From: Capsulimonadales bacterium
GTDB lineage: Bacteria; Armatimonadota; Armatimonadia; Armatimonadales; Armatimonadaceae
Reading direction: 5' to 3'
Length of the DNA stretch: 38,202 bases
Assembly (NCBI GenBank): GCA_033762295.1
Contig: JANRLW010000023.1
Location: 1-38,202, forward strand
Shown: positions 8,597-38,202 of the stretch, piece after piece
Position numbering within the stretch: position 1 is the first letter of the stretch
How the letters are laid out: every line of letters starts with the position of its first letter
The notes under the pieces: model-generated
Seen by the model: only the letters and a program-made list of their open reading frames with translations
Databases searched by the model: none
Told to the model about the DNA's origin: nothing
Made by a program: the position numbers and the translations under genes

Positions 8597-11500
8597 ATGC
8601 GTACGCTCTACGCCGTCTTCCGGATCACGCTCCTCCTTTACCTGTTTGCGTCCCCCCTGTACGCGCAGACCACACCGCCGTTTGTCTGGGTGGAAGGAGA
8701 GAATACCGCCGCCGTCACGCTGCCCGATGCCGTCGTCAAACGAGGAGGGTGGGGCAAAAAGGAGTTTCTTTCCGGCGAGACCTGGCTGCATATCTCGGTC
8801 GAGGAGAAGGACGTCGCCAAAACGATCCCCGACGGCGGCGCGATCGTTCGCTATGCGTTCGATGTCCCGCAGGCCGGCAACTACGCGGTCTGGGACCGGA
8901 TCGGCTATGAGTTCGTGCGTTCGCCGTTCGCCTGGCGGATCGACAGCGGCGACTGGAAGACGATTTCGCCCGACGCGCTCACCACCGACCTGATGTCCCT
9001 CGAAACCTGGAATGAGGTCGCCTGGCTGCCGCTCGGAAACGCGAACCTGACCGCCGGAAGGCACACCCTCGAAATCCGGCTCGACCGGACGAAGGACGAA
9101 AAAGGCAACCTGCAACGCGTTCTCTACGCTTCGGATGCCCTCTGCCTGATCGCCGGAACCTTCACTCCGAACAGCCGGTTCCGCCCCGGCGAATCCGGGC
9201 GCACCGAGGCCGACCGCGCCGCCGAGACGCGCCGTTTCGAACTGCCCGAGGCGACGAGCGACGGCACACGGGTCGCCCTCCCGCTCAAAGGCGACTGGGA
9301 GATCTGCCGCAACGACGAAAACCTGCCGCCGGCCGATATCGCCGTCCCGATGCAAGACTTCCCGGCGAACCCGATCTGGCGGGCGATCCCGGTGCCGTCG
9401 GACAAGAACGTCTCCCGCCCGGACCTGACATTCGCGCACCGCGTCTGGTATCGAACCCGCGTGAACGTCCCCGCGTCGCACGCCGGACGCTCCTTCGTTC
9501 TGACCTTCCCGCGCAACAACCTGAATACGACCGTCTATGTCAACGGCGTCTACTGCGGCTTCAACAAGAACCCGAACGCTCCCTTCGACATCGATATTAC
9601 GAAAGGGATGAAGCCGGGGCAGACGAATGAGGTATGGGTCGGCATTCGGGACGCCTGGTACGGCTACAGCAATAACCCGAAGAACCCGATGGTCCTGCGA
9701 CGGATGTTCAATCTGCCGCTGTCGTTCGTCGGCAACGGCTTTCAGCGGCTCGCTTACCCGATCTGGCACGCCTGGGAGTCCGGCATCGTGCAGACGCCCG
9801 TCCTGACCAGCGTCGGCGGAACCTACCTGGCCGATATCTTCATCCAACCGGAGGTCGCCCGGAAGCGGATCCGACTCCGGACGACGTTCCTGAATAATCT
9901 GCCCGAAAAGGTCCATGGCAAGCTCAATCTGGTCGTCATCGATGCAAAGACCGGAAAGGATGTGGCCGCCAGCCGTAGCGATTTCGACATGACCGGCGGG
10001 TCGAGTAGGGAAACGACGCCGGGAAATGACGTCGTGGTGAATATTCCGGAGCCGAAACTATGGTGGCCGGAGCCGAACCCGCAGCTTTATCGACTGCGGG
10101 TCTCGATCTTCGTCGAGGGGAAAAATGCGGATGTTTCCGAGACGACGTTCGGGTTCCGGGAGTGGGGGAGCCGGGGGAAGGACTTCACCCTGAACGGCGT
10201 CGTCTGGCACGGCTGGGCCGACCTGAACGCCGGAGAGACCCCCGCGGAATTCCTGGCGAACTACCGCAAGGCGAACCAGCGGTTCTTTCGACTGTCCGGC
10301 TACGCGCAGGGCGGGCCGAACTGGCGCGGACTGACTCCGGCGGAGGCGCTCGACTTCGCCGACCGCAACGGCATGGTCGTCCGTCGCTCCGGCGACCTGG
10401 ACGGCGAGGCGATCGGGTACATGGCGATCGAGGACGATCCGGATCTCAAAGCCCTTTACAAGTCCGAAATCAAGATGGACCTGATGAAGAACTGGCGCGA
10501 CCAGATGGTGCAACAGGTCCGGGCCGAACGCAATCACCCGTCGATTCAGCTCTGGTCCGTCGAGAACGAATGGCTCTATATCAACTGCATCAACCTCTAC
10601 GGCGACCGGATGGACGAGTTCGAGCGGGAGGTGAAGGTGTGTATGGACGCCGTCCGCGAGGCCGACCCGACCCGGCTGGTGATGACCGACGGCGGCGGCG
10701 CGGGCAAGGACAACCTGTTCCCGGTTCACGGCGATCACTATGTCTTCGATGCGTCCCGGCCCGGCGCGTACCCCGCGCTCGCCTATGAAGCGAATCCGAA
10801 CGGCGGCGGACGCGGACGCTGGAAGTGGGATCAACAGCGGCCACGCTACCTTGGCGAGGACTTTTTCGCCACCGGTATCAACCCGTTCGACTATGCCTAT
10901 TTCGGCGGCGAGGAGACGTTTATCGGCAAGGTCAACACGCGACGGGCGGTCGGGATCGTGCAGACGATGCTGACCGAGGGGTACCGCTGGGCGGAGTACG
11001 GCGCGTGGCACTTCTGGCTCGGTTCCGAAAGCGGCGTCGGACAGTACAAAGCGTTCGCCGACCTGGCGGTGTTTTGCCGGCAGTGGGACCGCACCTTCCC
11101 CGACGGCGCGCGGGTGACCCGGACGCTCGGGATTTTTAACGACCGGTTCCGGGACGAGGGACCGATCACCCTGACGCAGACCCTGACCGTCGACGGCAAG
11201 ATCGTTCGAACCGACCGCTCGACCCACACGGTTCCGCCCGGCACGTCGAAAAAGTTCGACGTTCTCCTTGCCCTGCCGCGTGTCGAGCGGGAACGGGCCG
11301 AGGGGACGTGGACCCTGACCCTGACACAGGGCGGGAAGGAGCGTTACCGCGACGTCCGCCCGATCTCGATCCTGCGGGCCGTCCCGGCGAACCGGTCGCC
11401 GCTCACCCTGGCGCGGCAGGGGGGAAGCGGCAGTCCGTCGGCACCGCTCGTCTTCGATCCGCAGGGACAGGTGGTCGCCTACCTGACCGCACGGAAGATG

Positions 11501-13717
11501 CCTTTCCGGCGTGTCACCGGCCTGAACGCCCTGCCGACCGGCGGACAGTTGCTGATTCTCGGACGGGACGCATTGACGCCCGAGGAGAGCGCCTCGACCC
11601 GTCTGGCGGCCTGGGCGGCTGCCGGTGGGCGTGTTCTCGTGCTGGAGCAGAAAACGCCGCTCCGCTACCAGGGAATGCCCGCCGCGATGGAGTTCGGCGA
11701 GAACGAGGGACGCACCGCCTTCCTCGAGGAGGAATCCCATCCGGTCTTTCGCGGACTGCGCAACGAGGACTTCTTCACCTGGGGACCGGATGAAGTGGTC
11801 TATCGGAACGCCTACGAAAAACCCACGCGCGGCGCGAAGTCGCTGCTGCAGTGCGACGCCCGTCTCGCCCGTACCGCGCTGGCCGAGGTTCCGGTCGGCC
11901 GTGGGCTGCTGCTCGTCTGTCAGGCGCGGGTCGGCGAACTGCTCGGGAAGAACGCGGTCGCCGATCGGCTGTTCCGCAATCTTGTGGGCTATGCGACCGG
12001 CTACCGGCAGGAGTTTCGCCCGGTCCTCGCCGCCACCCCCGGCAGCGAGGCCGTCCGGAAGGCGTTGCGTGCGGCGGGCGTCCGTTTCACCGAGACGAAC
12101 GACCCGCTGAAGACGCTGAATCCCGGAGGGATCGCCGTCGTCGCCGCCACCCCGGACAACCTGAAGAGGCTGGCGGCGAACCCGGCGCGATTGACCGCGT
12201 TCCACAAAGGCGGCGGCTGGCTATTCCTGACCGACCTGACCCCGGAAGGACTGCCGGAGTACAACCGGGTGGTCGGGTTCGATCATATGATCCGTCCGTT
12301 CCGGCGCGAGCGGGTGACGTTCCCGGCGAAACGCGACCCGCTGACCGCCGGGCTATCCGTCGCCGATATCGTTCTCTCCTCCGGCGAACGGATCAACGGC
12401 TACACCGACGATGTCTACCTGGCGTCCGACGTCTTCCGCTATGTCCTCGATTACGACGAGGTCGCGCCGTTCGCCCAGCTTCCGAACCCGTCGTACTGGG
12501 GCCATGGGGACGCCAACAACGACCATAACCCCTACAACATCGTCAACGGGTTCAACTCCGACGATTCCTGGCAGCTCATCTTCTCGATGTGGGCCGGACC
12601 GGGCGGGAAGCCGGAGGTGCCCATGACGCTGCCACGGGCGCAGACGCTGACCGAAGTCGAGTGGCAGGGGAATGCCTTCTACTACCCGACGAAGGAGTTT
12701 GAGATCCGGGCGGACAACGGCGCGAAGGCGGTCTTTCGGCCCCGCCCGGACAATTCGGTCCAGGCGTTCCCGATTCGGCCCGCTCTCACCGGGAAGGAGT
12801 TTCTGGTACGGATCACCGGCTGGGTGGCGGCGAAGGAACCGGCGGTCGTCGGCATCGACAACCTCCGCCTGAAGGCGCAGCGGTCGCCGGAGTTCTACCG
12901 GACGACGCATCCGCTCCTCAATATCGGTGCGTTGATGCGTTACGATCGCGGGTCGGGCGGGATTGTCCTGTGCAATATCCTGTTTCAGGACACGGAAGCC
13001 GTTCCGGAAAACCTGCGAAAGAAGCGGAATATCCTCGCCACCCTGCTGCGAAATCTGAAAGCGCCGATCGGGGGCGGCGCGACCGTCATTGCGGGAGCGG
13101 CATTGAACTACGCGCCGATCGAGATCGGGAAATGGGCGACCCAGTTCCGGGACGAACGGGGCTGGTTCGGCGATCGGGCGTTTACCTTCAAGGACCTGCC
13201 GACCGGGCGACAGACGTTTGCCGGGGTGCCGTTCTCCGTGTATCGTTTTGCCACCTCGCCGGTGCCTGACGCGATCATGTTGAAGGGGGACGGCGTTCCG
13301 GGGAACCTGCCGGAGTCGGTGCGGGAGATTCCGATCGGACGGAAGGCGGACGCGCTGTTCTTCCTGCAGACGGCGCGGATCGATCAGCGTCGGAACCGGG
13401 ACGAGATTCGGGATCGGAAGCCGGTCGAGATGGCCCGGTATGTCGTGACCTACGAGGATGGCGAGAAGGCGGTCGTTCCGATCCGTGCCGAGGAGGACGT
13501 CGACGACTACCGACAGGAATCGCCGCGCGCGATTCCGGGGGCGCAGATCGGCTGGATCAAACGATACGACGGGACCCCCTATTCGGCGGTCGCCTATGTT
13601 CAGCAATGGAACAACCCGCGCCCGTCGGTGGCGATCCGGAGCGTCGATCTGGAGTATGGGGCGGACCGGCGGGGCGTCCCCGTTCTGCTCGCCCTCACCG
13701 CCGCTACCGCGCGCTAA
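8597..13717 (+). CDS. Large secreted multidomain GH2-like glycoside hydrolase (1706 aa)
   Basis: Signal peptide; VWYRTRV...VYVNG sugar-binding domain; LWWPE..PQLY; FGFRE; RNHPSIQLWSVENE acid/base motif; DPTRLV; extra beta-sandwich domains at both ends. Confidence 0.8.
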   Translation: MRTLYAVFRITLLLYLFASPLYAQTTPPFVWVEGENTAAVTLPDAVVKRGGWGKKEFLSGETWLHISVEEKDVAKTIPDGGAIVRYAFDVPQAGNYAVWDRIGYEFVRSPFAWRIDSGDWKTISPDALTTDLMSLETWNEVAWLPLGNANLTAGRHTLEIRLDRTKDEKGNLQRVLYASDALCLIAGTFTPNSRFRPGESGRTEADRAAETRRFELPEATSDGTRVALPLKGDWEICRNDENLPPADIAVPMQDFPANPIWRAIPVPSDKNVSRPDLTFAHRVWYRTRVNVPASHAGRSFVLTFPRNNLNTTVYVNGVYCGFNKNPNAPFDIDITKGMKPGQTNEVWVGIRDAWYGYSNNPKNPMVLRRMFNLPLSFVGNGFQRLAYPIWHAWESGIVQTPVLTSVGGTYLADIFIQPEVARKRIRLRTTFLNNLPEKVHGKLNLVVIDAKTGKDVAASRSDFDMTGGSSRETTPGNDVVVNIPEPKLWWPEPNPQLYRLRVSIFVEGKNADVSETTFGFREWGSRGKDFTLNGVVWHGWADLNAGETPAEFLANYRKANQRFFRLSGYAQGGPNWRGLTPAEALDFADRNGMVVRRSGDLDGEAIGYMAIEDDPDLKALYKSEIKMDLMKNWRDQMVQQVRAERNHPSIQLWSVENEWLYINCINLYGDRMDEFEREVKVCMDAVREADPTRLVMTDGGGAGKDNLFPVHGDHYVFDASRPGAYPALAYEANPNGGGRGRWKWDQQRPRYLGEDFFATGINPFDYAYFGGEETFIGKVNTRRAVGIVQTMLTEGYRWAEYGAWHFWLGSESGVGQYKAFADLAVFCRQWDRTFPDGARVTRTLGIFNDRFRDEGPITLTQTLTVDGKIVRTDRSTHTVPPGTSKKFDVLLALPRVERERAEGTWTLTLTQGGKERYRDVRPISILRAVPANRSPLTLARQGGSGSPSAPLVFDPQGQVVAYLTARKMPFRRVTGLNALPTGGQLLILGRDALTPEESASTRLAAWAAAGGRVLVLEQKTPLRYQGMPAAMEFGENEGRTAFLEEESHPVFRGLRNEDFFTWGPDEVVYRNAYEKPTRGAKSLLQCDARLARTALAEVPVGRGLLLVCQARVGELLGKNAVADRLFRNLVGYATGYRQEFRPVLAATPGSEAVRKALRAAGVRFTETNDPLKTLNPGGIAVVAATPDNLKRLAANPARLTAFHKGGGWLFLTDLTPEGLPEYNRVVGFDHMIRPFRRERVTFPAKRDPLTAGLSVADIVLSSGERINGYTDDVYLASDVFRYVLDYDEVAPFAQLPNPSYWGHGDANNDHNPYNIVNGFNSDDSWQLIFSMWAGPGGKPEVPMTLPRAQTLTEVEWQGNAFYYPTKEFEIRADNGAKAVFRPRPDNSVQAFPIRPALTGKEFLVRITGWVAAKEPAVVGIDNLRLKAQRSPEFYRTTHPLLNIGALMRYDRGSGGIVLCNILFQDTEAVPENLRKKRNILATLLRNLKAPIGGGATVIAGAALNYAPIEIGKWATQFRDERGWFGDRAFTFKDLPTGRQTFAGVPFSVYRFATSPVPDAIMLKGDGVPGNLPESVREIPIGRKADALFFLQTARIDQRRNRDEIRDRKPVEMARYVVTYEDGEKAVVPIRAEEDVDDYRQESPRAIPGAQIGWIKRYDGTPYSAVAYVQQWNNPRPSVAIRSVDLEYGADRRGVPVLLALTAATAR

Positions 13718-16000: not shown

Positions 16001-17854
16001 ATGAACGCCCTGATTCCTTTCCTGATCCTCCATGCGGTGTCGTTTTCGACCGCGAAACCACCCTCGCCCCGTTACGTCTTCCCGAAAGACCCCGCCGTGC
16101 TCGACGCGAAGCGGGACTTCGGCGCGAAAGGGGATGGAATCGCCGACGATACCGACGCTCTGCAGCGGGGACTGGACGCCTCCTGCGGCGCGGACGGGAA
16201 GCCGACCCGCGTGCTCTTCCTGCCGAACGGCGTTTATCGTCTTACCCGGACTCTGGTGGTCAAACGTTCGCTCGGACCCTGGCTCTACGGCGAGTCGCGC
16301 GACGGGGTGATCCTGCGTCCGGACGACGGATTAAAGGACTACCGCTCGGTACTCCGAACGCATCCGAACGAGGACGGGCCGACATCCGCTGACTGGTTCA
16401 TGCGGAACCTGCGCCATTTCACGGTCGATGTCGGCAAAAACCCGGAGACGGACGGCATCCGATACTACGCCACCAATTCCGGCATTCTGAAGGACGTCCG
16501 CGTGATCGGTCACGGAAAGATCGGCATCAATGCCGGGTTCCTCGGACAGAGCGGACCCAACCTGATTCAGGACGTCACGGTCGAGGGGTTCGAAACCGGA
16601 ATCCAATCACAATGGATCTGGGGCGAGACGCTTTCCCGCGTCACCGTGCGCCGCTGCCGAAAGCAGGGTGTCTATGTGAGCGCGAACGCCGTCGGTATCG
16701 AGGACCTGACGGTCGAGGAGACGCCGATTGCGCTGTTCTGCGATTACCCCAACGACTGGACCTGGTGGGGTGGGGTGGTCGCCCTGGTCGGCGGACGGTT
16801 CTCCGGGAACGATCCGAAGAGCCCGGCCATTCGAAATCGCAGCGTGCTGTACGCCCGGAATGTCACGACACGCGGCTTTGGAAAAGCGATCGAGAGCGAC
16901 GCCGAACCGGGTAGTGTCGCCGGCCCGAAGGTGGCGGAGTTCGTTTTCCCCGGACGAAAGCGGCTGTTCGAGGGACCCGCGGACGCGCCGCTACCGATCA
17001 AACGGGAACCGGAGATCCCCTGGGAGACGGACCTCCGGAAATGGGTCTGCGCGAATGACTTCGGCGCGGTCGCCGGGGACAATCAGGACGATACCGACGC
17101 CCTGCGGAAGGCGATCGATGCCGCGGCGGCAAGGAAGGCGACCGTCGTCTATCTGCGCGGCGTCGGTGGCCCCGATCCGAACTGGTACAACGTCAACGGG
17201 ACCGTCCGGGTGCACGGCTCCGTTCGTTTTCTCCTGGGCCTCGGCTTCGGACGCATCATCGGGGGAGAGAACGGACGTTTCGTGATCGATGACGACTCCG
17301 CGCCCGTCGTCCGATTCCAAAATATCGACTCGTTCGGCGGACCCGGCGTCATCGTGGAAAACCGGTCGACGAACCGTACCCTGGTCGCGGAAAGCTGTGG
17401 CATCCGGGTGCTGGGAACCGGAAAAGGGGACATCTTCCTGACCGATTGTCCGTCCACGCTGGAGATCGTTTCACCCGGACAGCGGGTCTGGGCGCGGCAC
17501 TTCAATCCGGAAGGCAACAGCGATACCGGACTGGTGCGCAACGAAGGCGGTCTGCTCTGGGCGCTCGGGGTGAAATGCGAGGGGAAGGGCGTTCGCTTCC
17601 GCACGGCAAAAGGGGGCCGGACCGAGATCTACGGCATGTTCAACTACGGCAGCGGCATGGACCCGAAAGACCTCCGCCCGATGTTCGAGGTCGAGGATGC
17701 TCGCTTTCGCATCGCCGGCCTGCGGGAGATCGTCTTCGAAGCGAACCCCTGGCCGGTCAAAGTCCGCGAAAAGCACGGGACGGAGACACGAACGTTGGGC
17801 AGCGACCGGGAGGGCGGCTGGATCGGGTGGAGTCTGTTCGACAGTAAGCCGTAA
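16001..17854 (+). CDS. Secreted beta-helix glycoside hydrolase (pectate_lyase_3 / GH55-like, two beta-helix units)
   Basis: Two copies of the beta-helix N-cap: FGAKGDGIADDTDALQRGL...LFLPNGVY and FGAVAGDNQDDTDALRKAI...VYL; signal peptide. Confidence 0.8.
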   Translation: MNALIPFLILHAVSFSTAKPPSPRYVFPKDPAVLDAKRDFGAKGDGIADDTDALQRGLDASCGADGKPTRVLFLPNGVYRLTRTLVVKRSLGPWLYGESRDGVILRPDDGLKDYRSVLRTHPNEDGPTSADWFMRNLRHFTVDVGKNPETDGIRYYATNSGILKDVRVIGHGKIGINAGFLGQSGPNLIQDVTVEGFETGIQSQWIWGETLSRVTVRRCRKQGVYVSANAVGIEDLTVEETPIALFCDYPNDWTWWGGVVALVGGRFSGNDPKSPAIRNRSVLYARNVTTRGFGKAIESDAEPGSVAGPKVAEFVFPGRKRLFEGPADAPLPIKREPEIPWETDLRKWVCANDFGAVAGDNQDDTDALRKAIDAAAARKATVVYLRGVGGPDPNWYNVNGTVRVHGSVRFLLGLGFGRIIGGENGRFVIDDDSAPVVRFQNIDSFGGPGVIVENRSTNRTLVAESCGIRVLGTGKGDIFLTDCPSTLEIVSPGQRVWARHFNPEGNSDTGLVRNEGGLLWALGVKCEGKGVRFRTAKGGRTEIYGMFNYGSGMDPKDLRPMFEVEDARFRIAGLREIVFEANPWPVKVREKHGTETRTLGSDREGGWIGWSLFDSKP

Positions 17855-29382: not shown

Positions 29383-30261
29383 ATGGTACGTCACTCCGAC
29401 CGTCCGCTGCGGATGGGGATTCGCCCCCGGACGGGCTTCACGCTGATCGAACTGCTCGTCGTCATCGCCATAATCGCGATTCTGGCGGCCATCCTTTTCC
29501 CGGTCTTCGCACAGGCCCGAGAGAAAGCCCGACAGATCACCTGTGTTTCGAACATGAAACAGATCGGCCTCGGCATCCTGATGTACTCGCAGGATTACGA
29601 CGAACAGTACCCGCTCGGCTCCTATCTGCTGACCGGCATGACCGCGGCGGTCACCTGGCAGGACCTGACCGAACCCTACATCAAAGTCGGCGCGGGCGGC
29701 ACCGGCATCAATATCGTTCAGCGACGTGACGTCGGCCTCTGGACCTGCCCGAGCATCTCCCCGAGCGCGAACAACCTGCCGGTGACGGCGGGCGATCCGC
29801 AGCCGTTCGCCGGATTTCCCAACGTGGCCAGCTTCTACTCCCGCGCCTTCAGCTATGTCAATAACAGCAACCTGATGCCGACCATGCACCGCAGTGCGCT
29901 CGATCTGGGCTGGTTCCCGATGGGGGTTCAGGGACAGGCGTCCGTCGATTCGCCGGCGCAACGGGTGCTCGCCGCCGAGGGATTGGGCTACGTCGGAAAT
30001 ACCGGAGGCGACGACTGGACCACCGGTTGCACCGGCATCGAGACCGGTTTTCCCAACCTGAGCGGACGCCTGATCGGACGCGCCGATAACTACTGCGGCG
30101 GTCGTTACCGGCACAGCGGCGGCGGCAACTTCGCCTTTGCCGACGGTCACGCCAAGTGGTTCCGCGCGCCGGGCGGCTCGTGGCGCAACCGTAGCGAAAC
30201 CGGAGTCGCCTGGCGTAAATCCCTCGCGCCCAACGCCGTGGCCTGGTTCCGCGAGGACTGA
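29383..30261 (+). CDS. Prepilin-type N-terminal cleavage/methylation protein, DUF1559 / H-X9-DG family
   Basis: [59 protein letters not shown] 29383 follows AAGGGA. Confidence 0.92.
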
Positions 30262-30274
30262 AAGTCGGCAGACG

Positions 30275-31618
30275 GTGCGAATACTCTTTCTCTCTCCCGG
30301 CACCGGCAGCTTCTACTGCGGCAGCTGTATGCGCGATAACGCCCTGGCGATCGCGCTGCGTAAGAGGGGGCACGACGCCATGCTCGTGCCCCTGTACCTC
30401 GCGCCGACCCTCGATGAGGAGTCCGCCGCCGAGAACGCTCCGCTGTTCTACGGCGGTATCAACGTCTACCTGCAGCAGGCGTCCCCGATCTTCCGCCATA
30501 CCCCCCGCTGGATCGATCGGATGTTCGACTCGCCCGGCGCGCTTCAGGCCGCAGCCGGACGGGCCGGAATGACGCAGGCGCGGGACCTCGGCGCGCTGAC
30601 CGTCTCCACCCTGCGCGGCGAGGACGGAAATCAGGTCAAGGAACTGGAGCGGCTGACCGACTGGGTGGCGCGAGAGGGAAAGCCCGATGTCGTCTGCCTC
30701 TCGAACGCCCTCCTGCTCGGACTTGCGCGGCGGATCAAACGGGCCACCGGAGCGGTGGTCGCCTGCACCCTGCAAGGGGAGGATACCTTCCTCGATGCCC
30801 TGACCGAACCGTACCGGACGCAGGCGTGGAACACCCTGTCGGAGCGGGCGCGGGACGTCGACGCCCTGATCGCCGTCAGCCGCTACCATGCCGACATCAT
30901 GACCCGACGGGCCAAACTCATCCCCGATAAGGTCCACGTCATCTACAACGGTATCCTTCTCGACGGATACGGACCTAAACCGCCGCTGACCGCCGGTCAA
31001 AAGCCGGTGCTTGGCTATCTGGCGCGGATGTACGCGCCCAAAGGGCTTACCACCCTGGTCGATGCCTATATCCTGCTCCGGGAGCGGGGGAGGATCAACC
31101 ATCTGCAGCTGCACGTGGCCGGAGCGCAGACCGCCGCCGATGTCCCTTACGTCGCACAACTGCAGGCGAAACTGGATGCCGCCGGGTACGGACGCGACGT
31201 CGCCTTCCTGCCGAACCTCGACCGCAAGGAGAAGGTCGCCTTTCTCCGGGGGCTGTCCGTCCTTTCCGTTCCGGCAACCTACGGCGAATCGTTCGGCCTG
31301 TACGTGCTGGAGGCTCTGGCGGCCGGAGTGCCCGTCGTCCAACCCCGGCACGCCGTCTTCCCGGAACTGCTGGAACAGACCGGCGGCGGGGTGCTGTGCG
31401 AACCGAACGATCCGGCGGCCCTGGCGGACGCAGTGGAAAACCTCCTGCGCGACCCGACCGCCGCCCTGGCGCTCGGGGAAGCCGGACGCCGGACGGTGAA
31501 CGAACGGTTTAGCGTCGAGACGATGGCGCAACACGTCGAACAGGTATTCGTCACGGCCAACCCGAAGCGGGAGACGTCGACGATCTACTCCGGTATTTCC
31601 GGCAAGGATGGAGAGTGA
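30275..31618 (+). CDS. Glycosyltransferase family 4 (GT-B fold)
   Basis: GTG start MRILFLSPG; LIAVS, VHVIYNGI, LGYLARM..PKG, ESFGLYVLEALAAGVPVV. Confidence 0.9.
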   Translation: MRILFLSPGTGSFYCGSCMRDNALAIALRKRGHDAMLVPLYLAPTLDEESAAENAPLFYGGINVYLQQASPIFRHTPRWIDRMFDSPGALQAAAGRAGMTQARDLGALTVSTLRGEDGNQVKELERLTDWVAREGKPDVVCLSNALLLGLARRIKRATGAVVACTLQGEDTFLDALTEPYRTQAWNTLSERARDVDALIAVSRYHADIMTRRAKLIPDKVHVIYNGILLDGYGPKPPLTAGQKPVLGYLARMYAPKGLTTLVDAYILLRERGRINHLQLHVAGAQTAADVPYVAQLQAKLDAAGYGRDVAFLPNLDRKEKVAFLRGLSVLSVPATYGESFGLYVLEALAAGVPVVQPRHAVFPELLEQTGGGVLCEPNDPAALADAVENLLRDPTAALALGEAGRRTVNERFSVETMAQHVEQVFVTANPKRETSTIYSGISGKDGE

Positions 31619-32204
31619 ACGAGTGGGAAACGAACAGACGGCACAGCCCGGAACGACATGGCTTGTGTTCGCCCTGATGACCGTGGTCTCCTGGGGCGTC
31701 TACGGTGTCTTTCTGCATACCGGACAGATGGCGATGGGAGACCCGGTCAACGGGCGGTATAAGGCGTTCCTGTTTGTCGGGCTTGCCTACTTTCTGACGG
31801 CGGTTCTGGCGCCGCTGGCGATCCTGCTGCTCAACGGAGCGTCCTGGCAGATGCCGGTCAAGGGGATGGGCTGGTCGCTGGTGGCGGGAATCGTCGGGGC
31901 GATCGGCGCGTTCTGCGTTCTGCTGGCCTTCGGCGCGAAAGGCCAGCCGCCGGTCGTCATGTCGATCGTCTTCGGGGGCGCGCCGATCGTGAACGCCGTG
32001 GTCGCGATCGCTCAGCATCCGCCGGAAGGGGGACTCTCCTCGATCAAATGGCCGTTCTACCTCGGTCTGGCGCTGGCGGCGATCGGCGGCTGTCTGGTGA
32101 CGCTGTATCGACCGGCGTCCGCCCCGGCGAAGAAACCTGTCGCATCGGTCGAGGGAGGCGCTTCGCCCGTGGCCGCCTCGCCCGTGGCCGCCGCCGACCG
32201 ATGA
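31608..32204 (+). CDS. Multi-pass membrane protein (about 5 TM, EamA/DMT-like half)
   Basis: Five hydrophobic segments with SWGVYG and GGAPIVNA. Overlaps both flanking genes. Confidence 0.75.
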   Translation: MESERVGNEQTAQPGTTWLVFALMTVVSWGVYGVFLHTGQMAMGDPVNGRYKAFLFVGLAYFLTAVLAPLAILLLNGASWQMPVKGMGWSLVAGIVGAIGAFCVLLAFGAKGQPPVVMSIVFGGAPIVNAVVAIAQHPPEGGLSSIKWPFYLGLALAAIGGCLVTLYRPASAPAKKPVASVEGGASPVAASPVAAADR

Positions 32205-32908
32205 ACGGTCTACCGATCCTGGACCTGAAAAGCGTCCGCAAGGTCTACCGGGGGACCGACGGCGCGCCCGATACCCCCGTACTGGAAAATGTCGACCTGC
32301 GCCTCGCTCCGGGCGAGTCCGTCGCCATCGTCGGCCCGTCCGGCGCGGGGAAAAGCACCCTTCTGAATATCATCGGCACGCTGGACCGACCGGATTCCGG
32401 GACGGTTCTGCTCGACGGGAAGGACGTGACCGCCCTCAACGACGAGGGACTGGCGCAGGTGCGCGCACGGGAGATCGGGTTCATCTTTCAACTGCACCAT
32501 CTTCTGCCGCAATGCACCGTCCTGGAAAACGTCCTGATCCCGACCCTGGCGGGCGAACCGGACAACCGGCGTGAGAAGGCGACGGATCGCGCCCGGCGTC
32601 TGCTCGAACGCGTCGGACTCTCCGGGCGGATCGGTCATCGACCCGGACAACTGTCAGGCGGCGAACGACAGCGGGTCGCGGTCGTCCGCGCGCTCATCAA
32701 CGAACCCCGCCTGCTGCTCGCCGACGAACCGACCGGCGCATTGGACGTCAGCAACGCCAATCATCTGGCCGACCTGCTGATCGAACTGAACCGGGAGGAA
32801 GGGGTCGCCCTCCTGACGATCACCCATGCCCGGGAGATTGCCGCCCGGATGGCGAAGGTGTACGAACTGCGCGACGGACGCCTGCGCTCGATGGAAAGCG
32901 GACCATGA
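32201..32908 (+). CDS. ABC transporter ATP-binding protein (LolD/MacB-like)
   Basis: GPSGAGKST, LSGGERQRVA, LLADEPTG, ITH. ATGA overlaps at both ends. Confidence 0.95.
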   Translation: MNGLPILDLKSVRKVYRGTDGAPDTPVLENVDLRLAPGESVAIVGPSGAGKSTLLNIIGTLDRPDSGTVLLDGKDVTALNDEGLAQVRAREIGFIFQLHHLLPQCTVLENVLIPTLAGEPDNRREKATDRARRLLERVGLSGRIGHRPGQLSGGERQRVAVVRALINEPRLLLADEPTGALDVSNANHLADLLIELNREEGVALLTITHAREIAARMAKVYELRDGRLRSMESGP

Positions 32909-35900
32909 GTTTGTGGCGCTACCTGATCGGAAGCCTGCGTTTTCACGGACGCTCGCACCTGGGCGTCTTCCTCGGCGCGGCCCTGGCGACCGCGATCATC
33001 ACCGGCGCGCTCGCGGTCGGCGACTCGGTGCGCCATAGCCTGCGACGACTGGCGCTCGCCCGGATCGGAAACACCGAACTCGCCCTGACCAACCCGGCCC
33101 GCTTCTTTCGCGAGCAGCTGGGCGACGAACTGTCGAAGGAACTGAACGCCCCCGCCGCCGCGATACTGCTCCTGCGCGGGACGGCGACCGGAGAAAAAGC
33201 CGACGGCACGGGCGGCGAGGTCCGCGCCGGGCGGGTACAGGCGCTCGGGGTCACCGACGCGTTCTGGCGCGTTGCGGGAGCGAACCCGCCCACCTTTCGC
33301 AGCGATGCGGACGACGATGGCGAGGGGACGGCGGCCATCAACGATCGCCTGGCCAAAACCCTCGGAATCGGTGTCGGCGATGACCTCCTTCTGCGGGTGG
33401 ACAAGCCGAGTCTCCTTTCGCGGGACGCCCCGCTCTCGACGATTGAAGACGCCACCGTCACCCTGCGCCTGACCGTCGCCGCGATCACCGACGATGAAAA
33501 CGCCGGGCGCTTCAGTCTGGAAGCCAATCAGGTGGCTCCCTTCAACGTTTTTATCCCGCGCGCCGTGCTGCAAAAACGCGTCGGCATGGAAGGGCGGGCC
33601 AATACCCTGCTGGTCGGACGACCCGACGATCGGCCGCTCGACCCGTCCGCGGCGACCGGCGCGCTCTGGAAACGCTGGGAACTGACCGACTCCGGCCTGG
33701 AACTGCGCGAGGTGAGGGGCAAGGGGACGCTGGACCTGCGGACGACCCGCGTCTTTCTCGATCCGCCCATCGGCGAGGCCGCCCTGACCGCAACCCCCGA
33801 CGCCCGCGGCGTGCTGACCTATTTCGTCAATGAACTGCGAGTCGGCGATCGGGCGACCCCCTATTCGACGGTGACCGCCATCCGTGGCGCGCCGCTGCCC
33901 GCCGACCTGAAGGACGACGAAGCGGTCGTCAACCGGTGGTTCGCCGACGATGTCGGGGCGAAGGTCGGGGACCGACTGACCCTGACCTACTGGATCGTCG
34001 GACCGATGCGCCGGCTGGAGGAGCGGAAAAGCGATTTTCGTATCCGGGCGATCCTGCCGATGGAGACCGCCGCCGACCCCGACCTGATGCCCGACATTCC
34101 CGGCCTTTCCGACAAGAAGGATTGCCGCGACTGGGAACCGGGCGTCCCGGTCGATCTGAACCGCATCCGCGATAAGGATCAGACCTACTGGGAACGGTAT
34201 CGGGGCAGTCCGAAGGCGTTTATTACCCTGCGAGCGGGGCAGCGTATCTGGAACAACCGCTTCGGGGACCTGACGGCGGTTCGTTACCCGGTGAGCGGTC
34301 CGGCAGGGAAAGGCTCGATCGAGATGTGTCTGCGGCAGGCGCTCAGCCCGGCCTCCCAGGGACTGTTCTTTCAGCCGGTGCGGGAGCGTGCGCTCAAAGC
34401 CAGCGGCGAATCGCTCGATTTCGGCCAGTTGTTCCTCGGCTTCAGCCTGTTTTTGATCGTCGCCGCCCTGCTGTTGACCGGGTTGCTGTTCGCGTTCGGG
34501 ATCGAACAGCGCACCGGGGAGATGGGGACACTGCTGGCCCTCGGTTTCACTCCCCGGCGCGTTCGCGGCCTTCTGCTGGCCGAGGGGGTCCTGGTATCGG
34601 TTCCCGCGGCCCTGGTCGGGGTCGGACTCGCGACCCTGTACACGCGGGCGGTCATCGCCGGGCTTTCCTCGGTCTGGAGCGGAGCGGTCGCCGACACCGT
34701 CCTGCGCTTCGCCGTCACCCCCGCAACGCTGGTGATCGGCGCGCTCTCCGGAATCCTGATGGCCCTGTTCTCCATCTTCCCGGTAACGCGACGGCAGGCG
34801 GCCGCGCCGGTTCGGGAACTGCTGGCGGCCGGCGCGGAATCGGAGACGCGACTGCTGACCGGGCCGACCGTACGACGGCACGCCGGCCTGCCGACCGCCG
34901 CCCTCGCGTTTATCCTTGCCGTGGCGCTGCTTGCGTTCACGGGGCGGGGTGGCAGTTCGGAGATGTCGGCGGGCCTTTTCTTCGGGGCCGGCGCGTTGCT
35001 GCTGATCTCGGCGATCGGCTTATCCCGCTATGTGCTGTCGCTGGCCTCGGGCACGAAAACGGATAGCCTGCCGGATATCGGCACACTGGCGCGGCGCAAC
35101 GCCCTGCGTCGGCTCGGGCGTAGCCTCAGCGCCGTCACGCTGCTGGCCTCGGGCGCGTTTCTGGTCATCGCGGTCGGGGCGAACCGGCACGACCCGGAGG
35201 AGGGGGCGCGGGAACGCTCCTCCGGGACCGGCGGTTTCGCCCTGTACGCCGAGGCGTCGCTGCCGGTGTTTCAGGACCTGAACACCGACGAGGGGCAGGA
35301 AGCCTTCGGCATCGAACCCACCCTCATGAAGGAGGCGCGCGTTCTGGCGTTGCGCTTCCGGGAAGGCGACGACGCCAGCTGTCTGAATCTCAACCGGGCA
35401 CAGACGCCGCGCCTGTTCGGGGTCGCGTCGAACGAGCTGCGGCAGCGCAAAGCGTTCACCTTTACCGGGACGACGGAGCGTGCCGACGACCCCTGGGGAC
35501 TGCTCGATTCCGCGCCGACGGACGGAACGATTCCGGTGATCGGGGACACGAACACCGTCATCTGGTCGCTCGGGAAGAAACTGGGAGACGTCGTTCCGAT
35601 CACCGATGATCGGGGGGAGACGCACCGGCTTCGGATCGTCGGAGTTCTGGCCAACTCGGTGCTGCAGGGAGGCTTGATACTCTCCGAGACGCAGTTCGTC
35701 CGGTTGTTCCCGACACAGAGCGGGTACCAGGTGTTCCTGATCGACGCTCCGGCGGCGACGGCGGCGGCGGTTTCCGGCGCGTTGACGAAAGCGTTGGAGG
35801 ACAACGGATTGAGTGTCACCCCGGCGGCACAGCGTCTGGCGGCGTTCAATACCGTTGAGAATACCTACCTGTCGATCTTCGCGATTCTGGGTGGTCTGGG

Positions 35901-36243
35901 TCTGTTGCTCGGAAGCCTGGGACTGGGCATCCTCGTTCTGCGGAACGTCTGGGAGCGGCGCGGGGAACTGGCGCTGTTGCGGGCGGTCGGCTGGCGGACG
36001 GCGGCGATCTACCGACTGGTCTTTCTGGAGCATGCCCTGTTGCTGACGCTGGGTTTGCTGGCGGGCATCGTGTCGGCGCTGGTGGCGGTCCTGCCGGCTT
36101 TGCGTTCGCCGGGAGCGGACGTTCCCTACCTCTCACTGACGATGACTCTGCTGGCGGTCCTTGTCACCGGCTTCCTGTTCACCGGCCTGGCGACCGCGCT
36201 CGCCCTGCGCACCCCGTTGCTCGCCGCCCTTCGTAACGAGTAA
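32905..36243 (+). CDS. ABC transporter permease, duplicated MacB-PCD/FtsX architecture
   Basis: Two FtsX-like halves (EQRTGEMGTLLALGF; ERRGELALLRAVGW) with large extracytoplasmic domains. Confidence 0.9.
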   Translation: MSLWRYLIGSLRFHGRSHLGVFLGAALATAIITGALAVGDSVRHSLRRLALARIGNTELALTNPARFFREQLGDELSKELNAPAAAILLLRGTATGEKADGTGGEVRAGRVQALGVTDAFWRVAGANPPTFRSDADDDGEGTAAINDRLAKTLGIGVGDDLLLRVDKPSLLSRDAPLSTIEDATVTLRLTVAAITDDENAGRFSLEANQVAPFNVFIPRAVLQKRVGMEGRANTLLVGRPDDRPLDPSAATGALWKRWELTDSGLELREVRGKGTLDLRTTRVFLDPPIGEAALTATPDARGVLTYFVNELRVGDRATPYSTVTAIRGAPLPADLKDDEAVVNRWFADDVGAKVGDRLTLTYWIVGPMRRLEERKSDFRIRAILPMETAADPDLMPDIPGLSDKKDCRDWEPGVPVDLNRIRDKDQTYWERYRGSPKAFITLRAGQRIWNNRFGDLTAVRYPVSGPAGKGSIEMCLRQALSPASQGLFFQPVRERALKASGESLDFGQLFLGFSLFLIVAALLLTGLLFAFGIEQRTGEMGTLLALGFTPRRVRGLLLAEGVLVSVPAALVGVGLATLYTRAVIAGLSSVWSGAVADTVLRFAVTPATLVIGALSGILMALFSIFPVTRRQAAAPVRELLAAGAESETRLLTGPTVRRHAGLPTAALAFILAVALLAFTGRGGSSEMSAGLFFGAGALLLISAIGLSRYVLSLASGTKTDSLPDIGTLARRNALRRLGRSLSAVTLLASGAFLVIAVGANRHDPEEGARERSSGTGGFALYAEASLPVFQDLNTDEGQEAFGIEPTLMKEARVLALRFREGDDASCLNLNRAQTPRLFGVASNELRQRKAFTFTGTTERADDPWGLLDSAPTDGTIPVIGDTNTVIWSLGKKLGDVVPITDDRGETHRLRIVGVLANSVLQGGLILSETQFVRLFPTQSGYQVFLIDAPAATAAAVSGALTKALEDNGLSVTPAAQRLAAFNTVENTYLSIFAILGGLGLLLGSLGLGILVLRNVWERRGELALLRAVGWRTAAIYRLVFLEHALLLTLGLLAGIVSALVAVLPALRSPGADVPYLSLTMTLLAVLVTGFLFTGLATALALRTPLLAALRNE

Positions 36244-36446: not shown

Positions 36447-37076
36447 ATGGTTTCCCTGATTAAACAATGGCTCGCGGTTGGCGCTCTGCTCCTGATCGCC
36501 ACGCCGGTCGATGCCGAAGTCGTTTCGCTGACGCTTGGTATCCGAATGAACTGCCCCTACGGCCTGGCCGGGTGATGGGGGAACGTCCGATACGGACTGG
36601 CACGCCTGGAGGGCGTGGAAACGATCTCTGAAACGGCCGATGCGGCGGCCCAGACCTGCGAAATACGCATGAAAGGTCCGGGTATTCCCGACCCCAGGGC
36701 TCTGGCCGACCATATCGAGCGGAAGATGCGGGTGGGGGCGACCCTGCGTGGCATCGAAATCAAGGCGGTCGGTCGCCTCACCGAGCGAGACGACGGCCTC
36801 TATCTCGAAATTTCCGGAACGAAAGAAACGATCCGACTGGCCGCCCTGCGCCGAAAGGTGCAGTGGGATATACCCGCCGGGCGGGAACAGGAGGCGACAC
36901 CCGCCGAGAAAAACGCCTTCGAGCGACTGCGCGGATCACGCAAAAACGAACTCGTTCTGGTGACCGGGCCGCTCGTCCGACCGGTCGGCGAGGAACCGAT
37001 GGTGCTCGAAGTGCGCTCCTTCGGTCCCGCTCCGACCCGACGGACCGCTCCCCCCCGCTCACCGTCCGGACCATAA
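36447..37076 (+). CDS. Putative exported HMA-like (ferredoxin-fold) metal-binding selenoprotein, in-frame UGA at codon 43
   Basis: ATG 36447 is in frame with the track ORF 36615..37076. Translation: MVSLIKQWLAVGALLLIATPVDA|EVVSLTLGIRMNCPYGLAG(TGA 36573-36575)WGNVRYGLARLEGVETISET... This fits the HMA pattern M-x-C..C-xxx-V-xx-xL-xx-L-x-GV. A hairpin follows the TGA. Confidence 0.7.
36576..36600 (+). promoter_or_regulatory. Candidate bacterial SECIS element
   Basis: GTCCG-ATA-CGGAC (36585-36597), alternatively a GUCC/GGAC stem with a G-first loop GAUAC, starting 9 nt after the UGA. Confidence 0.4.
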
Positions 37077-37091
37077 CCGGACCATAACCGG
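37066..37091 (+). repeat. 11-bp tandem duplication spanning the stop codon
   Basis: CCGGACCATAA at 37066-37076 and 37077-37087, then CCGG. Confidence 0.85.
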
Positions 37092-37146
37092 CAAACGATT
37101 GTACTGATGAATATTGTTGCTTTTCAAGAGAATGGAAGTGGTTTTC

Positions 37147-38202
37147 ATGATGATTCAACGGAAGCTGCGGAGGCGCACCGATCGCGCGTCCCGAATTTTC
37201 ACCGTTTTTCCCGCGATGATGATTCTCACCCTTTCCGCGTCGTGCCTGCTGGCAACGACGTCCGCCCGGGCGCAGTCCACCGATCCCGCCGTGGTCGGTA
37301 AGTGGAGCGAAGTGCAGGATTGGCCGGTTCGCGCCATTCATATGAATCTTCTGCCGACCGGAAAGGTCATGTTCTGGACCCGCCACCCGGAAGGGTTCCC
37401 GCCCTATCTCTGGGACCCCGATACCAGTGCGCTGGCCGGCGCGCTGCCGACAGCCGGCTGGCAGGAGTTCTGCGCCTCGCATGTTCTGCTCGCCGACGGA
37501 CAGATGCTGCTGACCGGCGGCCACCTGACGGCGGACGGTCATGGCGCGCCGCATGCCGCTCTGTATAACTCCTTCACCAACACCTGGACGCGCCAGCCCG
37601 ATATGAATAACGGACGCTGGTATCCCTCCAGCGTTCTCCTCGGAAACGGCGATGTGGTCGTTCTGTCGGGCAGCTATAACACCAGCTACGCCAACAACAT
37701 GATGCCGCAGGTCTTCAGCAACGGCGTCTGGCGCAACCTGACGGGGGCGCAGCGGTTCCAGGAACTGTATCCCTATCTCCACCTCGCTCCGAACGGGAAA
37801 GTCTTCTTATCGGGTCCGGTCCAGTCCACGTACTACCTCGATACGGCCGGCAACGGTTCGTGGATCTATGTCGGCGAACGAAAATTCCCGAACCGCGATT
37901 ACGGATGCTCGGTGATGTACGGAGATGGCAAGGTGTTCTTTGCCGGTGGCGGCGACCCGCCGACCGAAACCGCCGAGGTCATCGACCTGAATGCCCCCGT
38001 TCCCACCTGGCGGTACGTCGGCTCCCTGTCGAAGCAGCGTCGACAGATCAACGCCACCCTGCTGCCGGACGGAAAGATCCTGGTTACGGGCGGTGTCAGC
38101 GGACCGGGCTGGAACGACATGACGACCCCGGTGCTTTCCTCCGAGGTCTGGGACCCGGTCACCGAGAAGTTCACGACCTGGGCCAGCATGGCGGTCGGAC
38201 GC
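37147..38202 (+). CDS. Secreted galactose/glyoxal oxidase-like copper radical oxidase (AA5-like Kelch propeller), 3' end outside the window
   Basis: Absent from the ORF track. Frame opens at ATG 37132/37147: signal peptide ...TSARA|Q, GKWSEVQDWPVRAIHMNLLPTGKV, EFCASHVLLADG (cofactor Cys, TGC 37471), MNNGRWYPS (cofactor Tyr, TAT 37621), LYPYLHL, TLLPDGKILVTGG. Confidence 0.88.
   Translation, partial: MMIQRKLRRRTDRASRIFTVFPAMMILTLSASCLLATTSARAQSTDPAVVGKWSEVQDWPVRAIHMNLLPTGKVMFWTRHPEGFPPYLWDPDTSALAGALPTAGWQEFCASHVLLADGQMLLTGGHLTADGHGAPHAALYNSFTNTWTRQPDMNNGRWYPSSVLLGNGDVVVLSGSYNTSYANNMMPQVFSNGVWRNLTGAQRFQELYPYLHLAPNGKVFLSGPVQSTYYLDTAGNGSWIYVGERKFPNRDYGCSVMYGDGKVFFAGGGDPPTETAEVIDLNAPVPTWRYVGSLSKQRRQINATLLPDGKILVTGGVSGPGWNDMTTPVLSSEVWDPVTEKFTTWASMAVGR

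Follow-up and report, generated by a model that had tools for sequence, protein, structure and literature searches.

Introduction

The supply of copper to copper radical oxidases in vivo is known only partly, through Sco and DtpA in the case of the Streptomyces enzyme GlxA. Sco is a general chaperone with a thioredoxin fold. It has been reported that galactose oxidase (GalOx) matures within seconds with Cu(I) and within hours with Cu(II) (PMC11611005), that the maturation of GlxA under copper limitation requires Sco (PMC4736821), and that Sco, ECuC and DtpA form the copper-trafficking background of GlxA (PMC9040799). In Colletotrichum and Magnaporthe, the gene of a copper radical oxidase, an alcohol oxidase, stands in tandem with that of its own activator, a peroxidase that is secreted along with it (PMC9770985). 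Here we analyze a pair of genes at the end of a contig of 38,202 nucleotides from a Capsulimonadales bacterium (assembly GCA_033762295.1, contig JANRLW010000023.1). This stretch, called the window below, is the entire contig C23 of genome G000. The first gene, gene A, is predicted to encode an exported selenoprotein in which an HMA-like domain precedes an OB fold, and the second, gene B, a copper radical oxidase. Irrespective of the chemistry involved, the gene A protein very probably serves the oxidase as a dedicated binding partner, and we consider it somewhat better than an even chance that it acts as a factor dedicated to the Cu(I) loading or the maturation of this enzyme, with a logic like that of CCS.

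CCS, the copper chaperone for Cu,Zn-SOD, consists of an Atx1-like domain 1 and a docking domain. It occupies the top Foldseek rows and also scores Z 7.8–7.9 in the structure comparison, and it resembles the gene A protein in joining an HMA domain to a second beta domain and in serving one cuproenzyme client. The likeness lies in the HMA domain only, however, because the second domain of gene A is an OB fold, its motif is CX6[C/U], and the client of its family is an AA5-like oxidase, with the partner either exported or fused in cis. The gene A protein probably works as CCS does for SOD1, without being CCS. Atx1, CopZ and MerP (PF00403) and the families NF041115 (UxxU_metal_bind) and NF045683 (MerT_CopZ_Se) share with gene A the fold and the register (G-x-T, second cysteine, L at +8, GV at +13/+14), and selenocysteine (Sec) occupies the second cysteine in gene A as it does in a sister family that scores against these models. 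In contrast to all of these, the gene A family has a four-residue insertion, an extra OB domain and a linkage to oxidases, and it falls below the models. GlxA is a bacterial copper radical oxidase with an RWYP motif (W288-Y289), and its maturation needs a copper-trafficking partner; the partner described here has an unrelated fold, and its coding sequence either adjoins that of the oxidase or forms part of it. Gene B scores below the GlxA equivalog cut-off. The activator in Colletotrichum and Magnaporthe is an oxidizing heme peroxidase, whereas a heme motif is missing from the gene A protein, whose Cys/Sec pair is reducing.

The gene pair

The features of the two genes are listed in Table 1. 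Gene A contains a single in-frame TGA (codon 43, context MNCPYGLAG-U-WG). Gene callers cut the gene at this codon, and the database entry consists of only the 153-aa piece downstream of it. Gene B is co-oriented with gene A and starts at ATG 37132 or 37147, with TTG 37114 also in frame, which leaves an intergenic gap of 55 or 70 nt after the gene A stop. This gap agrees with the preliminary description of this DNA, in which the Sec candidate was followed by a leader-bearing Kelch protein; the FCASH and RWYPS motifs named there lie at 37468 and 37615. Both N-termini are hydrophobic, with 11-residue hydropathy peaks of 2.56 for gene A, where the leader ends VDA|E, and 2.35 for gene B; this peak, a crude measure, was used to judge the leaders of all proteins. 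Gene B matches Pfam Glyoxal_oxid_N (E 1.6e-14) and Kelch, and NCBIfam GlxA only below its cut-off, and it shows a Kelch propeller together with the motifs of the cofactor cysteine and the cross-linked tyrosine. On the basis of these motifs and profiles, we predict that gene B encodes an AA5/GlxA-like copper radical oxidase, with oxidation of an alcohol or aldehyde and release of H2O2 as its putative activity. A scan for promoters and terminators gave nothing on the + strand and nothing above chance.

Table 1. Predicted features of gene A and gene B in the window
Feature	Position	Strand	Basis or remark
Gene A, predicted exported selenoprotein, 209 aa (predicted signal peptide, HMA-like domain, OB fold)	36447..37076	+	Open reading frame (ATG 36447, TAA 37074–37076, 209 codons), homologues, model
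Predicted signal peptide of gene A, aa 1–23, ending VDA	36447..36515	+	Sequence, hydropathy, shared A|E/Q mature start of homologues
HMA-like ferredoxin-fold domain, mature residues 1–83	36516..36764	+	AlphaFold2 model, structure matches, hhalign 98.2% to PF00403-positive sister family
C-P-Y-G-L-A-G-U-W motif, HMA CxxC widened by four residues	36552..36578	+	Cys 36552–36554, TGA 36573–36575
SECIS-type hairpin, CACGCC-TGGAG-GGCGTG	36601..36617	+	Loop 31 nt past UGA
Third Cys, mature C48, start of strand 3	36657..36659	+	Exported-type members only
OB-fold-like beta-barrel, mature residues 78–172	36747..37031	+	Structure matches to PriB/SSB-type OB folds
Gene B, 5' part (352 aa) of predicted-secreted AA5/GlxA-like copper radical oxidase	37147..38202	+	Open at contig end
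Cys of FCASH, predicted cofactor cysteine (GalOx C228 equivalent)	37471..37473	+	FCASH motif
Trp-Tyr of RWYPS, predicted GlxA W288/Y289 equivalents (stacking Trp, cross-linked Tyr)	37618..37623	+	Alignment to 4unm and W288A mutant 5lqi

Linkage to copper radical oxidases

Homologues were collected by a search of 401 genomes of the phylum, in which 11 matched and 9 were real, and by two motif scans, which gave 81 GTDB loci and 24 metagenome loci, the latter for TGA only. The pattern matches L070, L078, L079 and L106, which had profile scores under 30, and duplicate loci were removed, and the weak phylum-search matches L016 and L017 proved to be off-frame noise. The final set holds 98 distinct genes, 23 with TGA (window included) and 75 with Cys; because the scans select for the motif and the second also for TGA, this ratio of Sec to Cys is not a population figure.

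In 63 of the 75 Cys loci the domain is fused to the C-terminus of an AA5-like oxidase, 11 further loci (10 plus L100) lie directly downstream of an oxidase, and L081 is cut by the start of its contig. Fifteen of the 23 Sec genes adjoin an oxidase, 11 upstream and 4 downstream of it, and five loci are cut on one side by a contig end. Among the 401 genomes, a PF09118 match was found in all 9 with a strong match to the family and in 14 of the 392 others. The fusions span many phyla and extend to fungi (Cladophialophora, Teratosphaeriaceae). Because the partner may stand upstream or downstream of the oxidase or be fused to it, the association is not a matter of inherited synteny alone. The dedicated link to copper radical oxidases that the preliminary description had proposed is supported. 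TGA, motif and oxidase neighbor recur in many divergent genomes, which is more than chance would give. The fusion of a CPYG..CW domain to the C-terminus of galactose-oxidase-like proteins, which that description had named as possible Rosetta-stone support, does exist.

The profile search listed 149 other proteins, of which 67 contain oxidase sequence, 64 are short, 13 have two copies of the domain and 5 are of other kinds; three later additions stand outside this classification. All four ligand motifs are kept in most fused oxidases and in the complete split oxidases. In the double-domain proteins, the first copy keeps both cysteines where it is seen, and the second lacks both and reads SPYGLxExW or GPYGLGEPW.

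Several individual loci are described here as observations. One adjacent Cys locus, L029, looks like a frameshifted fusion. The metagenome contig L119 carries two tandem pairs of Sec partner and oxidase, so that each oxidase has its own partner. Exported double-domain members (P0004–P0011, P0021, P0024, P0066; L151:15752-17719) often have fibronectin III-like repeats after the second copy, and one such member directly follows an oxidase frame of 2206 codons. In the fungus Elasticomyces elasticus (P0120, P0155) the domain is C-terminal to a subtilase (S8) domain, which takes the place of the oxidase. The Sec member L112 has a C-terminal extension of ~190 aa. At Planctomycetota loci, genes that look like heme peroxidases from their N-termini lie upstream of the oxidase (DyP-like in L090, animal-peroxidase-like in L048 and L051), and these neighbors recall the peroxidase-oxidase pairs.

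Fold and family relationships

Gene A gave no match in Pfam or NCBIfam, either singly or across 145 aligned members, and scans of PDB sequences and Rfam returned nothing for it. HMA was not among the 25 listed of 27 Pfam families for these members (E up to 1), and none of them came over the cut-off of the seleno-HMA models, for which 2 of the 145 gave a hit at all (best E 0.064, NF041115). Word-indexed protein searches were nearly blind, with 2 matches of near length and 0 among longer proteins despite the common fusions; the family profile recovers 559 clusters at 50% identity.

The AlphaFold2 model of gene A, with Sec entered as Cys, has a mean predicted local distance difference test (pLDDT) of 94.9 and a predicted template-modeling score (pTM) of 0.89, and consists of two parts. 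Residues 1–83 form a ferredoxin-like beta-alpha-beta-beta-alpha-beta fold, for which the best structural matches are Cu-binding HMA domains. With VIA, this part matched RAN1 MBD3 (Z 8.3, root-mean-square deviation (rmsd) 3.0, 75 residues aligned) and CCS domain 1 (Z 7.9, rmsd 2.3, 70 aligned); the best Foldseek E for the model was 3e-3, also to CCS. Residues 78–172 matched PriB/SSB-type OB folds (Z 7.2, rmsd 2.5, 74 aligned).

A sister family provides a stronger link than these matches, connecting gene A to HMA proteins at the level of profiles. It comprises 11 fetched of 12 weak profile matches in the phylum search (L136:3562-4038, L137–L146), all exported HMA-OB selenoproteins with nearly the same core of the selenocysteine insertion sequence (SECIS). 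Their motif is GxT-U-xx-U in 6 of the 11 and GxT-C-xx-U in 5, and four of six tested members reach the Pfam HMA (PF00403) cut-off. In hhalign, the gene A family and the sister family align over 147 columns, covering both domains, with 98.2% probability (E 5e-14), and CPYGLAGC falls on CxxC with four inserted residues. This alignment places Sec20 (mature numbering) at the second cysteine of an HMA-derived site. Conservation of the motif is nearly complete, with Cys13 in 135 of 136 rows and Cys or Sec at position 20 in 134 of 137. The HMA label that the preliminary description had given to gene A is therefore supported, as a model-based assignment, by the fold and this profile bridge, with no direct family match.

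Genes of the sister family adjoin a gene starting HEPLWGE in 9 of 11 loci, one copy of which matches PF13557 (outer-membrane-barrel-like), and at some loci a Cys-rich gene that we take to be YHS-like. The sister family falls below the NF041115 cut-off, so it may be another family that is not listed, with a role in metal uptake or detoxification.

None of the 119 selenoprotein families tabulated in 2026 (PMC13188914) has the motif of gene A or a link to an oxidase, and term searches of PMC12013277 and of the supplement part of PMC13326102 did not find the family. No description of the family or of the pairing stood among the top matches of full-text searches of the open literature. Gene A apparently represents an uncatalogued selenoprotein family, derived from HMA proteins and outside the listed HMA and seleno-HMA families.

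Predicted docking on the oxidase

The model of the fused homologue L055 (677 aa) has a pLDDT of 95.1 and a pTM of 0.93, and a model of this confidence suggests that the last 170 residues have a fixed position. For the natural split Cys pair L048, ESMFold2 gave a complex score of 0.92, compared with 0.00 for the best of three controls. The score mark that this pair reached was also reached by 116 of 157 solved pairs and 2 of 215 mismatched pairs, counts that are rough for alignments of this kind. The L048 runs share at least 90% of their contacts, and the pLDDT of the partner is at least 88. No solved structure with a domain of the gene A type was found in look-ups of PDB sequences and structures, which makes a memorized complex less likely, though the fused sequences are public.

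On the partner, the contacts comprise residues 12–16, 18–19, 21–23, 25–27, 30, 39–40, 69–74 and 119, and so involve helix 1 and the motif loop. The contacts of the oxidase fall in loops that align to the GalOx-type GGSW, EFRSDNH, PFTD and GGGLC segments, equivalent to the loops of W290, Y329/R330 and F464 of the substrate pocket. The F464 and R330 assignments were made by motif. The GalOx pocket residues are those given in PMC11611005, and W290 was placed through the CgrAAO Y334 variants described in PMC11267884. The predicted interface is thus the copper face of the oxidase, opposite the Ig-like domain, which is the outcome of the complex prediction proposed in the preliminary description. 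Inter-domain mutual information in 80 fused sequences gave scattered pairs and was uninformative.

Selenocysteine recoding

The genome carries selA, selB and selD, all over their cut-offs, and tRNA-Sec. The hairpin downstream of the TGA in gene A satisfies the bacterial SECIS model given in PMC13188914, with a UGGAG or GGA loop at 31–32 nt, 6–7 bp and −11.0 kcal/mol; an Rfam scan gave no SECIS match. Across the homologues, CGCCTG-nnn-GGCG is present at +30 to +42 in 23 of 23 TGA genes and in 3 of 74 scorable Cys genes, the count excluding L036, which is too short. The SECIS core occurs in only 3 of the 16 Cys genes that encode the same RLxG residues, and the outer pair covaries (C-G 7, A-T 4, G-C 3, T-A 2, T-G 1, mismatch 6). 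Because the TGA genes are related to each other, the 23 SECIS cases do not represent 23 independent events.

The in-frame UGA of the 23 TGA genes stands in the same alignment column as the cysteine of the 75 Cys loci. Four of six other TGA-bearing genomes tested have selA over the cut-off, a fifth has two contig-end pieces of it, and the sixth (G401, 2.6 Mb) gave no clear selA match. Taken together, these comparisons strongly indicate that the TGA of gene A is read as selenocysteine, so that the Sec candidate of the preliminary description stands as a predicted Sec insertion. We also observed that selD of G000 (L005, C128:21777-22718) is itself a selenoprotein gene, with an in-frame TGA (CAG-U-ASK) and a long hairpin downstream.

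Exported and fused types

A quick tree of 133 rows, with 12 motif-less protein rows kept outside it, separates the fused Cys group from the exported group. All 23 Sec genes and 9 Cys relatives form one branch with a support of 100 within the exported group, which also holds a Planctomycetota-rich Cys group apart from the Sec branch. The closest named relative in the tree is L089, from Armatimonadota, which makes this phylum the probable home of the host. Since all Sec genes fall in one clade, the link between Sec and export is essentially one event.

The two types differ at the N-terminus. A hydrophobic leader was seen in 28 of 35 non-fused forms, compared with 2 of the 52 fused ones whose start could be read. 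The extracytoplasmic location that the preliminary description had assigned to the partner therefore holds for the split form and not for the fused one, in which 50 of 52 readable N-termini lack such a leader. At their N-termini, 28 of the fused forms carry an LGNAWH module and 12 an alpha-amylase-like region, and 12 begin with other sequence; the LGNAWH module gave no Pfam match in the proteins scanned. Leaderless three-part fusions (L023, L027, L031, L035, L055 and others; P0048) consist of an alpha-amylase-like region, a copper radical oxidase and HMA-OB, an arrangement that suggests intracellular oxidation of alpha-glucans.

A third cysteine is confined to the exported types. It is C48 in 17 of the 23 Sec rows and C46 in all 5 exported Cys loci, and the 61 fused rows have neither. 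Exported Cys forms, such as those of the Planctomycetota-rich clade, show that Sec is not needed for export. In addition, selA is present in 3 of 3 exported-Cys genomes tested, and the choice of Cys there is thus not forced.

Copper ligands of the oxidase and genomic surroundings

The contig stops one codon ahead of the expected WYH of gene B, the axial Tyr-His pair. Both the Tyr-His and the C-terminal His ligands occur on another contig of this assembly, C93, and in those split partners that are complete (L008/L094, L009, L089, L121, L033 and L119). The start of C93 (L018:1-1110) encodes the C-terminal half of an oxidase, with WYHS, TH, an Ig-like domain and fibronectin III repeats, and overlaps the end of the window by 159 nt at 80% identity. 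As a direct continuation of gene B it was ruled out, because 32 of the 159 overlapping bases differ, 25 of them at third positions; it is therefore a paralogue or another allele. The assembly contains one oxidase N-half and one oxidase C-half, which do not join.

Upstream of gene A, a co-oriented run (30137–36243) encodes a GT4 glycosyltransferase, a small membrane protein, an ABC ATPase and an FtsX/MacB permease of 1112 aa. This FtsX-type ABC permease ends at 36243, about 200 nt before gene A, and nothing links it to the gene pair. Farther upstream, carbohydrate-related genes abound, among them those encoding GH2 (8597–13717), pectate-lyase-like (16001–17854) and CBM4/9 (554–2221) proteins.

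Discussion

The Cu(I)-loading factor is favored for two reasons: an HMA-derived site with two ligands would sit at the mouth of an enzyme that is matured by Cu(I), and the maturation of GlxA in vivo depends on a copper chaperone. The following sequence of events is proposed. The UGA would be decoded as Sec through the hairpin, as the comparison with homologues indicates, and the proteins of gene A and gene B, both with predicted leaders, would be exported. By homology of fold and motif, Cys13 and Sec20 of the HMA-like domain may together hold Cu(I). Docking would follow, with helix 1 and the CPYG-xxx-U-W loop placed on the loops around the copper pocket, as predicted for the Cys homologue pair, and Cu(I) could be passed to the apo-oxidase, in which the Cys-Tyr cofactor would form with O2. 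The fused Cys forms would carry out this loading in cis; their probable location is the cytoplasm, which has little free copper. Sec and the third cysteine may be adaptations of the exported lineages that keep the site reduced or protected. The alternative of a redox activator that regenerates the radical, also raised in the preliminary description, fits poorly with a reducing selenolate.

Several observations weigh against this assignment. We infer Cu(I) binding and handover, and the models contained no copper. The fold scores by themselves are moderate, with a best Foldseek E of 3e-3 and Z near 8, and some modules with an HMA fold bind other proteins and no metal, as do 8r7a, 6fu9 and 9rsv among the matches. 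The CX6[C/U] spacing differs from the CxxC of HMA, and no member of the family reaches the HMA model. The docking model comes from a Cys pair that is about 31% identical to gene A and not from the window's own pair, and residue 20, the Sec position, and the copper ligands of the oxidase are absent from its listed contacts, which is no evidence either way. The second copies in the double-domain proteins retain PYG..W without the cysteines, so that docking may not need metal. Three of the 23 Sec genes (L038, L112 and L115, one small clade) are true orphans that lack an oxidase in their flanking sequence, which spans at least 2.4 kb in each direction, and the L038 genome gave no PF09118 match. 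The partner is absent from 14 of the 23 oxidase-bearing genomes among the 401. Finally, G000 (94% complete) has a Sco-family match, which could do the same job, and no PCuAC match.

Among the other explanations, the one that survives best, though we think it unlikely, is a redox-gated lid or inhibitor, in which the partner would lie as a cap over the substrate pocket once the oxidase is mature; its Cys/Sec pair would sense H2O2 by forming a selenenylsulfide or disulfide, which would open or close the cap and so limit peroxide production. The predicted interface does cover the substrate-pocket loops, and the Cys-less second copies retain the docking loop. Most fused forms are leaderless, and a source of H2O2 in the cytoplasm would need control; the third cysteine of the exported forms could be the resolving one. 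However, a chaperone would dock at the same site, so the interface does not favor a lid, and the scaffold derives from metal-binding HMA proteins with CxxU/UxxU and keeps both cysteine positions nearly invariant.

A thiol/selenol relay is less likely still. Here the Cys-Sec pair would be a substrate or reductant of the oxidase, with the selenenylsulfide passed onward to other proteins, or would reduce Cu(II) in place, yielding Cu(I), and would not itself transport the metal. In the predicted complex the motif loop is turned towards the active site, the wide CX6U spacing would suit a reversible bond, the exported forms have a three-Cys arrangement, and most uncharacterized selenoproteins are likely redox proteins according to PMC13188914. 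However, there is no thioredoxin-like fold and no partner reductase among the neighbors looked at, and the fused forms bear carbohydrate modules, such as the alpha-amylase domain, that point to sugar substrates.

We consider it improbable that the gene A protein is a structural accessory of the oxidase, such as a folding aid or a substrate-binding cap, or a general periplasmic metal buffer or, resembling the sister family, a metal-detoxifying selenoprotein that only travels with it. OB folds frequently bind oligosaccharides, the three orphan Sec genes would fit such a role, and the sister family lies beside an outer-membrane-barrel-like gene and not beside oxidases; against these stand the covalent fusions over many phyla and in fungi, the three different gene orders and a high-confidence complex that uses the motif loop. 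A reading of the TGA as a real stop codon, which would make gene A a pseudogene, is hardly credible, even with the negative result for selA in G401, since 23 divergent genes share the TGA at one Cys column with an intact frame and a hairpin tied to that codon, and selA, whole or in pieces, was found in five of the six other genomes.

The balance of evidence thus remains with the Cu(I)-loading factor. In a broader form, and with about equal chances of being right or wrong, copper radical oxidases would have in the HMA-OB family their first dedicated copper chaperone, acting in trans, as an exported protein that in one clade uses a Cys-Sec site, or in cis, as a fused domain for cytoplasmic maturation in many bacteria and some fungi. 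If this is true, it would add a handover of metal from a selenolate to a cuproenzyme, and it would give this class of enzymes, most of whose known members are secreted, a branch in the cytoplasm. Copper radical oxidases that are leaderless and probably cytoplasmic are already indicated by the fused forms. The family offers a small dedicated candidate that exists naturally in Sec, Cys, Cys-less, split and fused versions. As a new selenoprotein family, it also provides a natural comparison of Sec with Cys at a likely metal site, and a loading factor of this kind could aid the recombinant production of copper radical oxidase biocatalysts.

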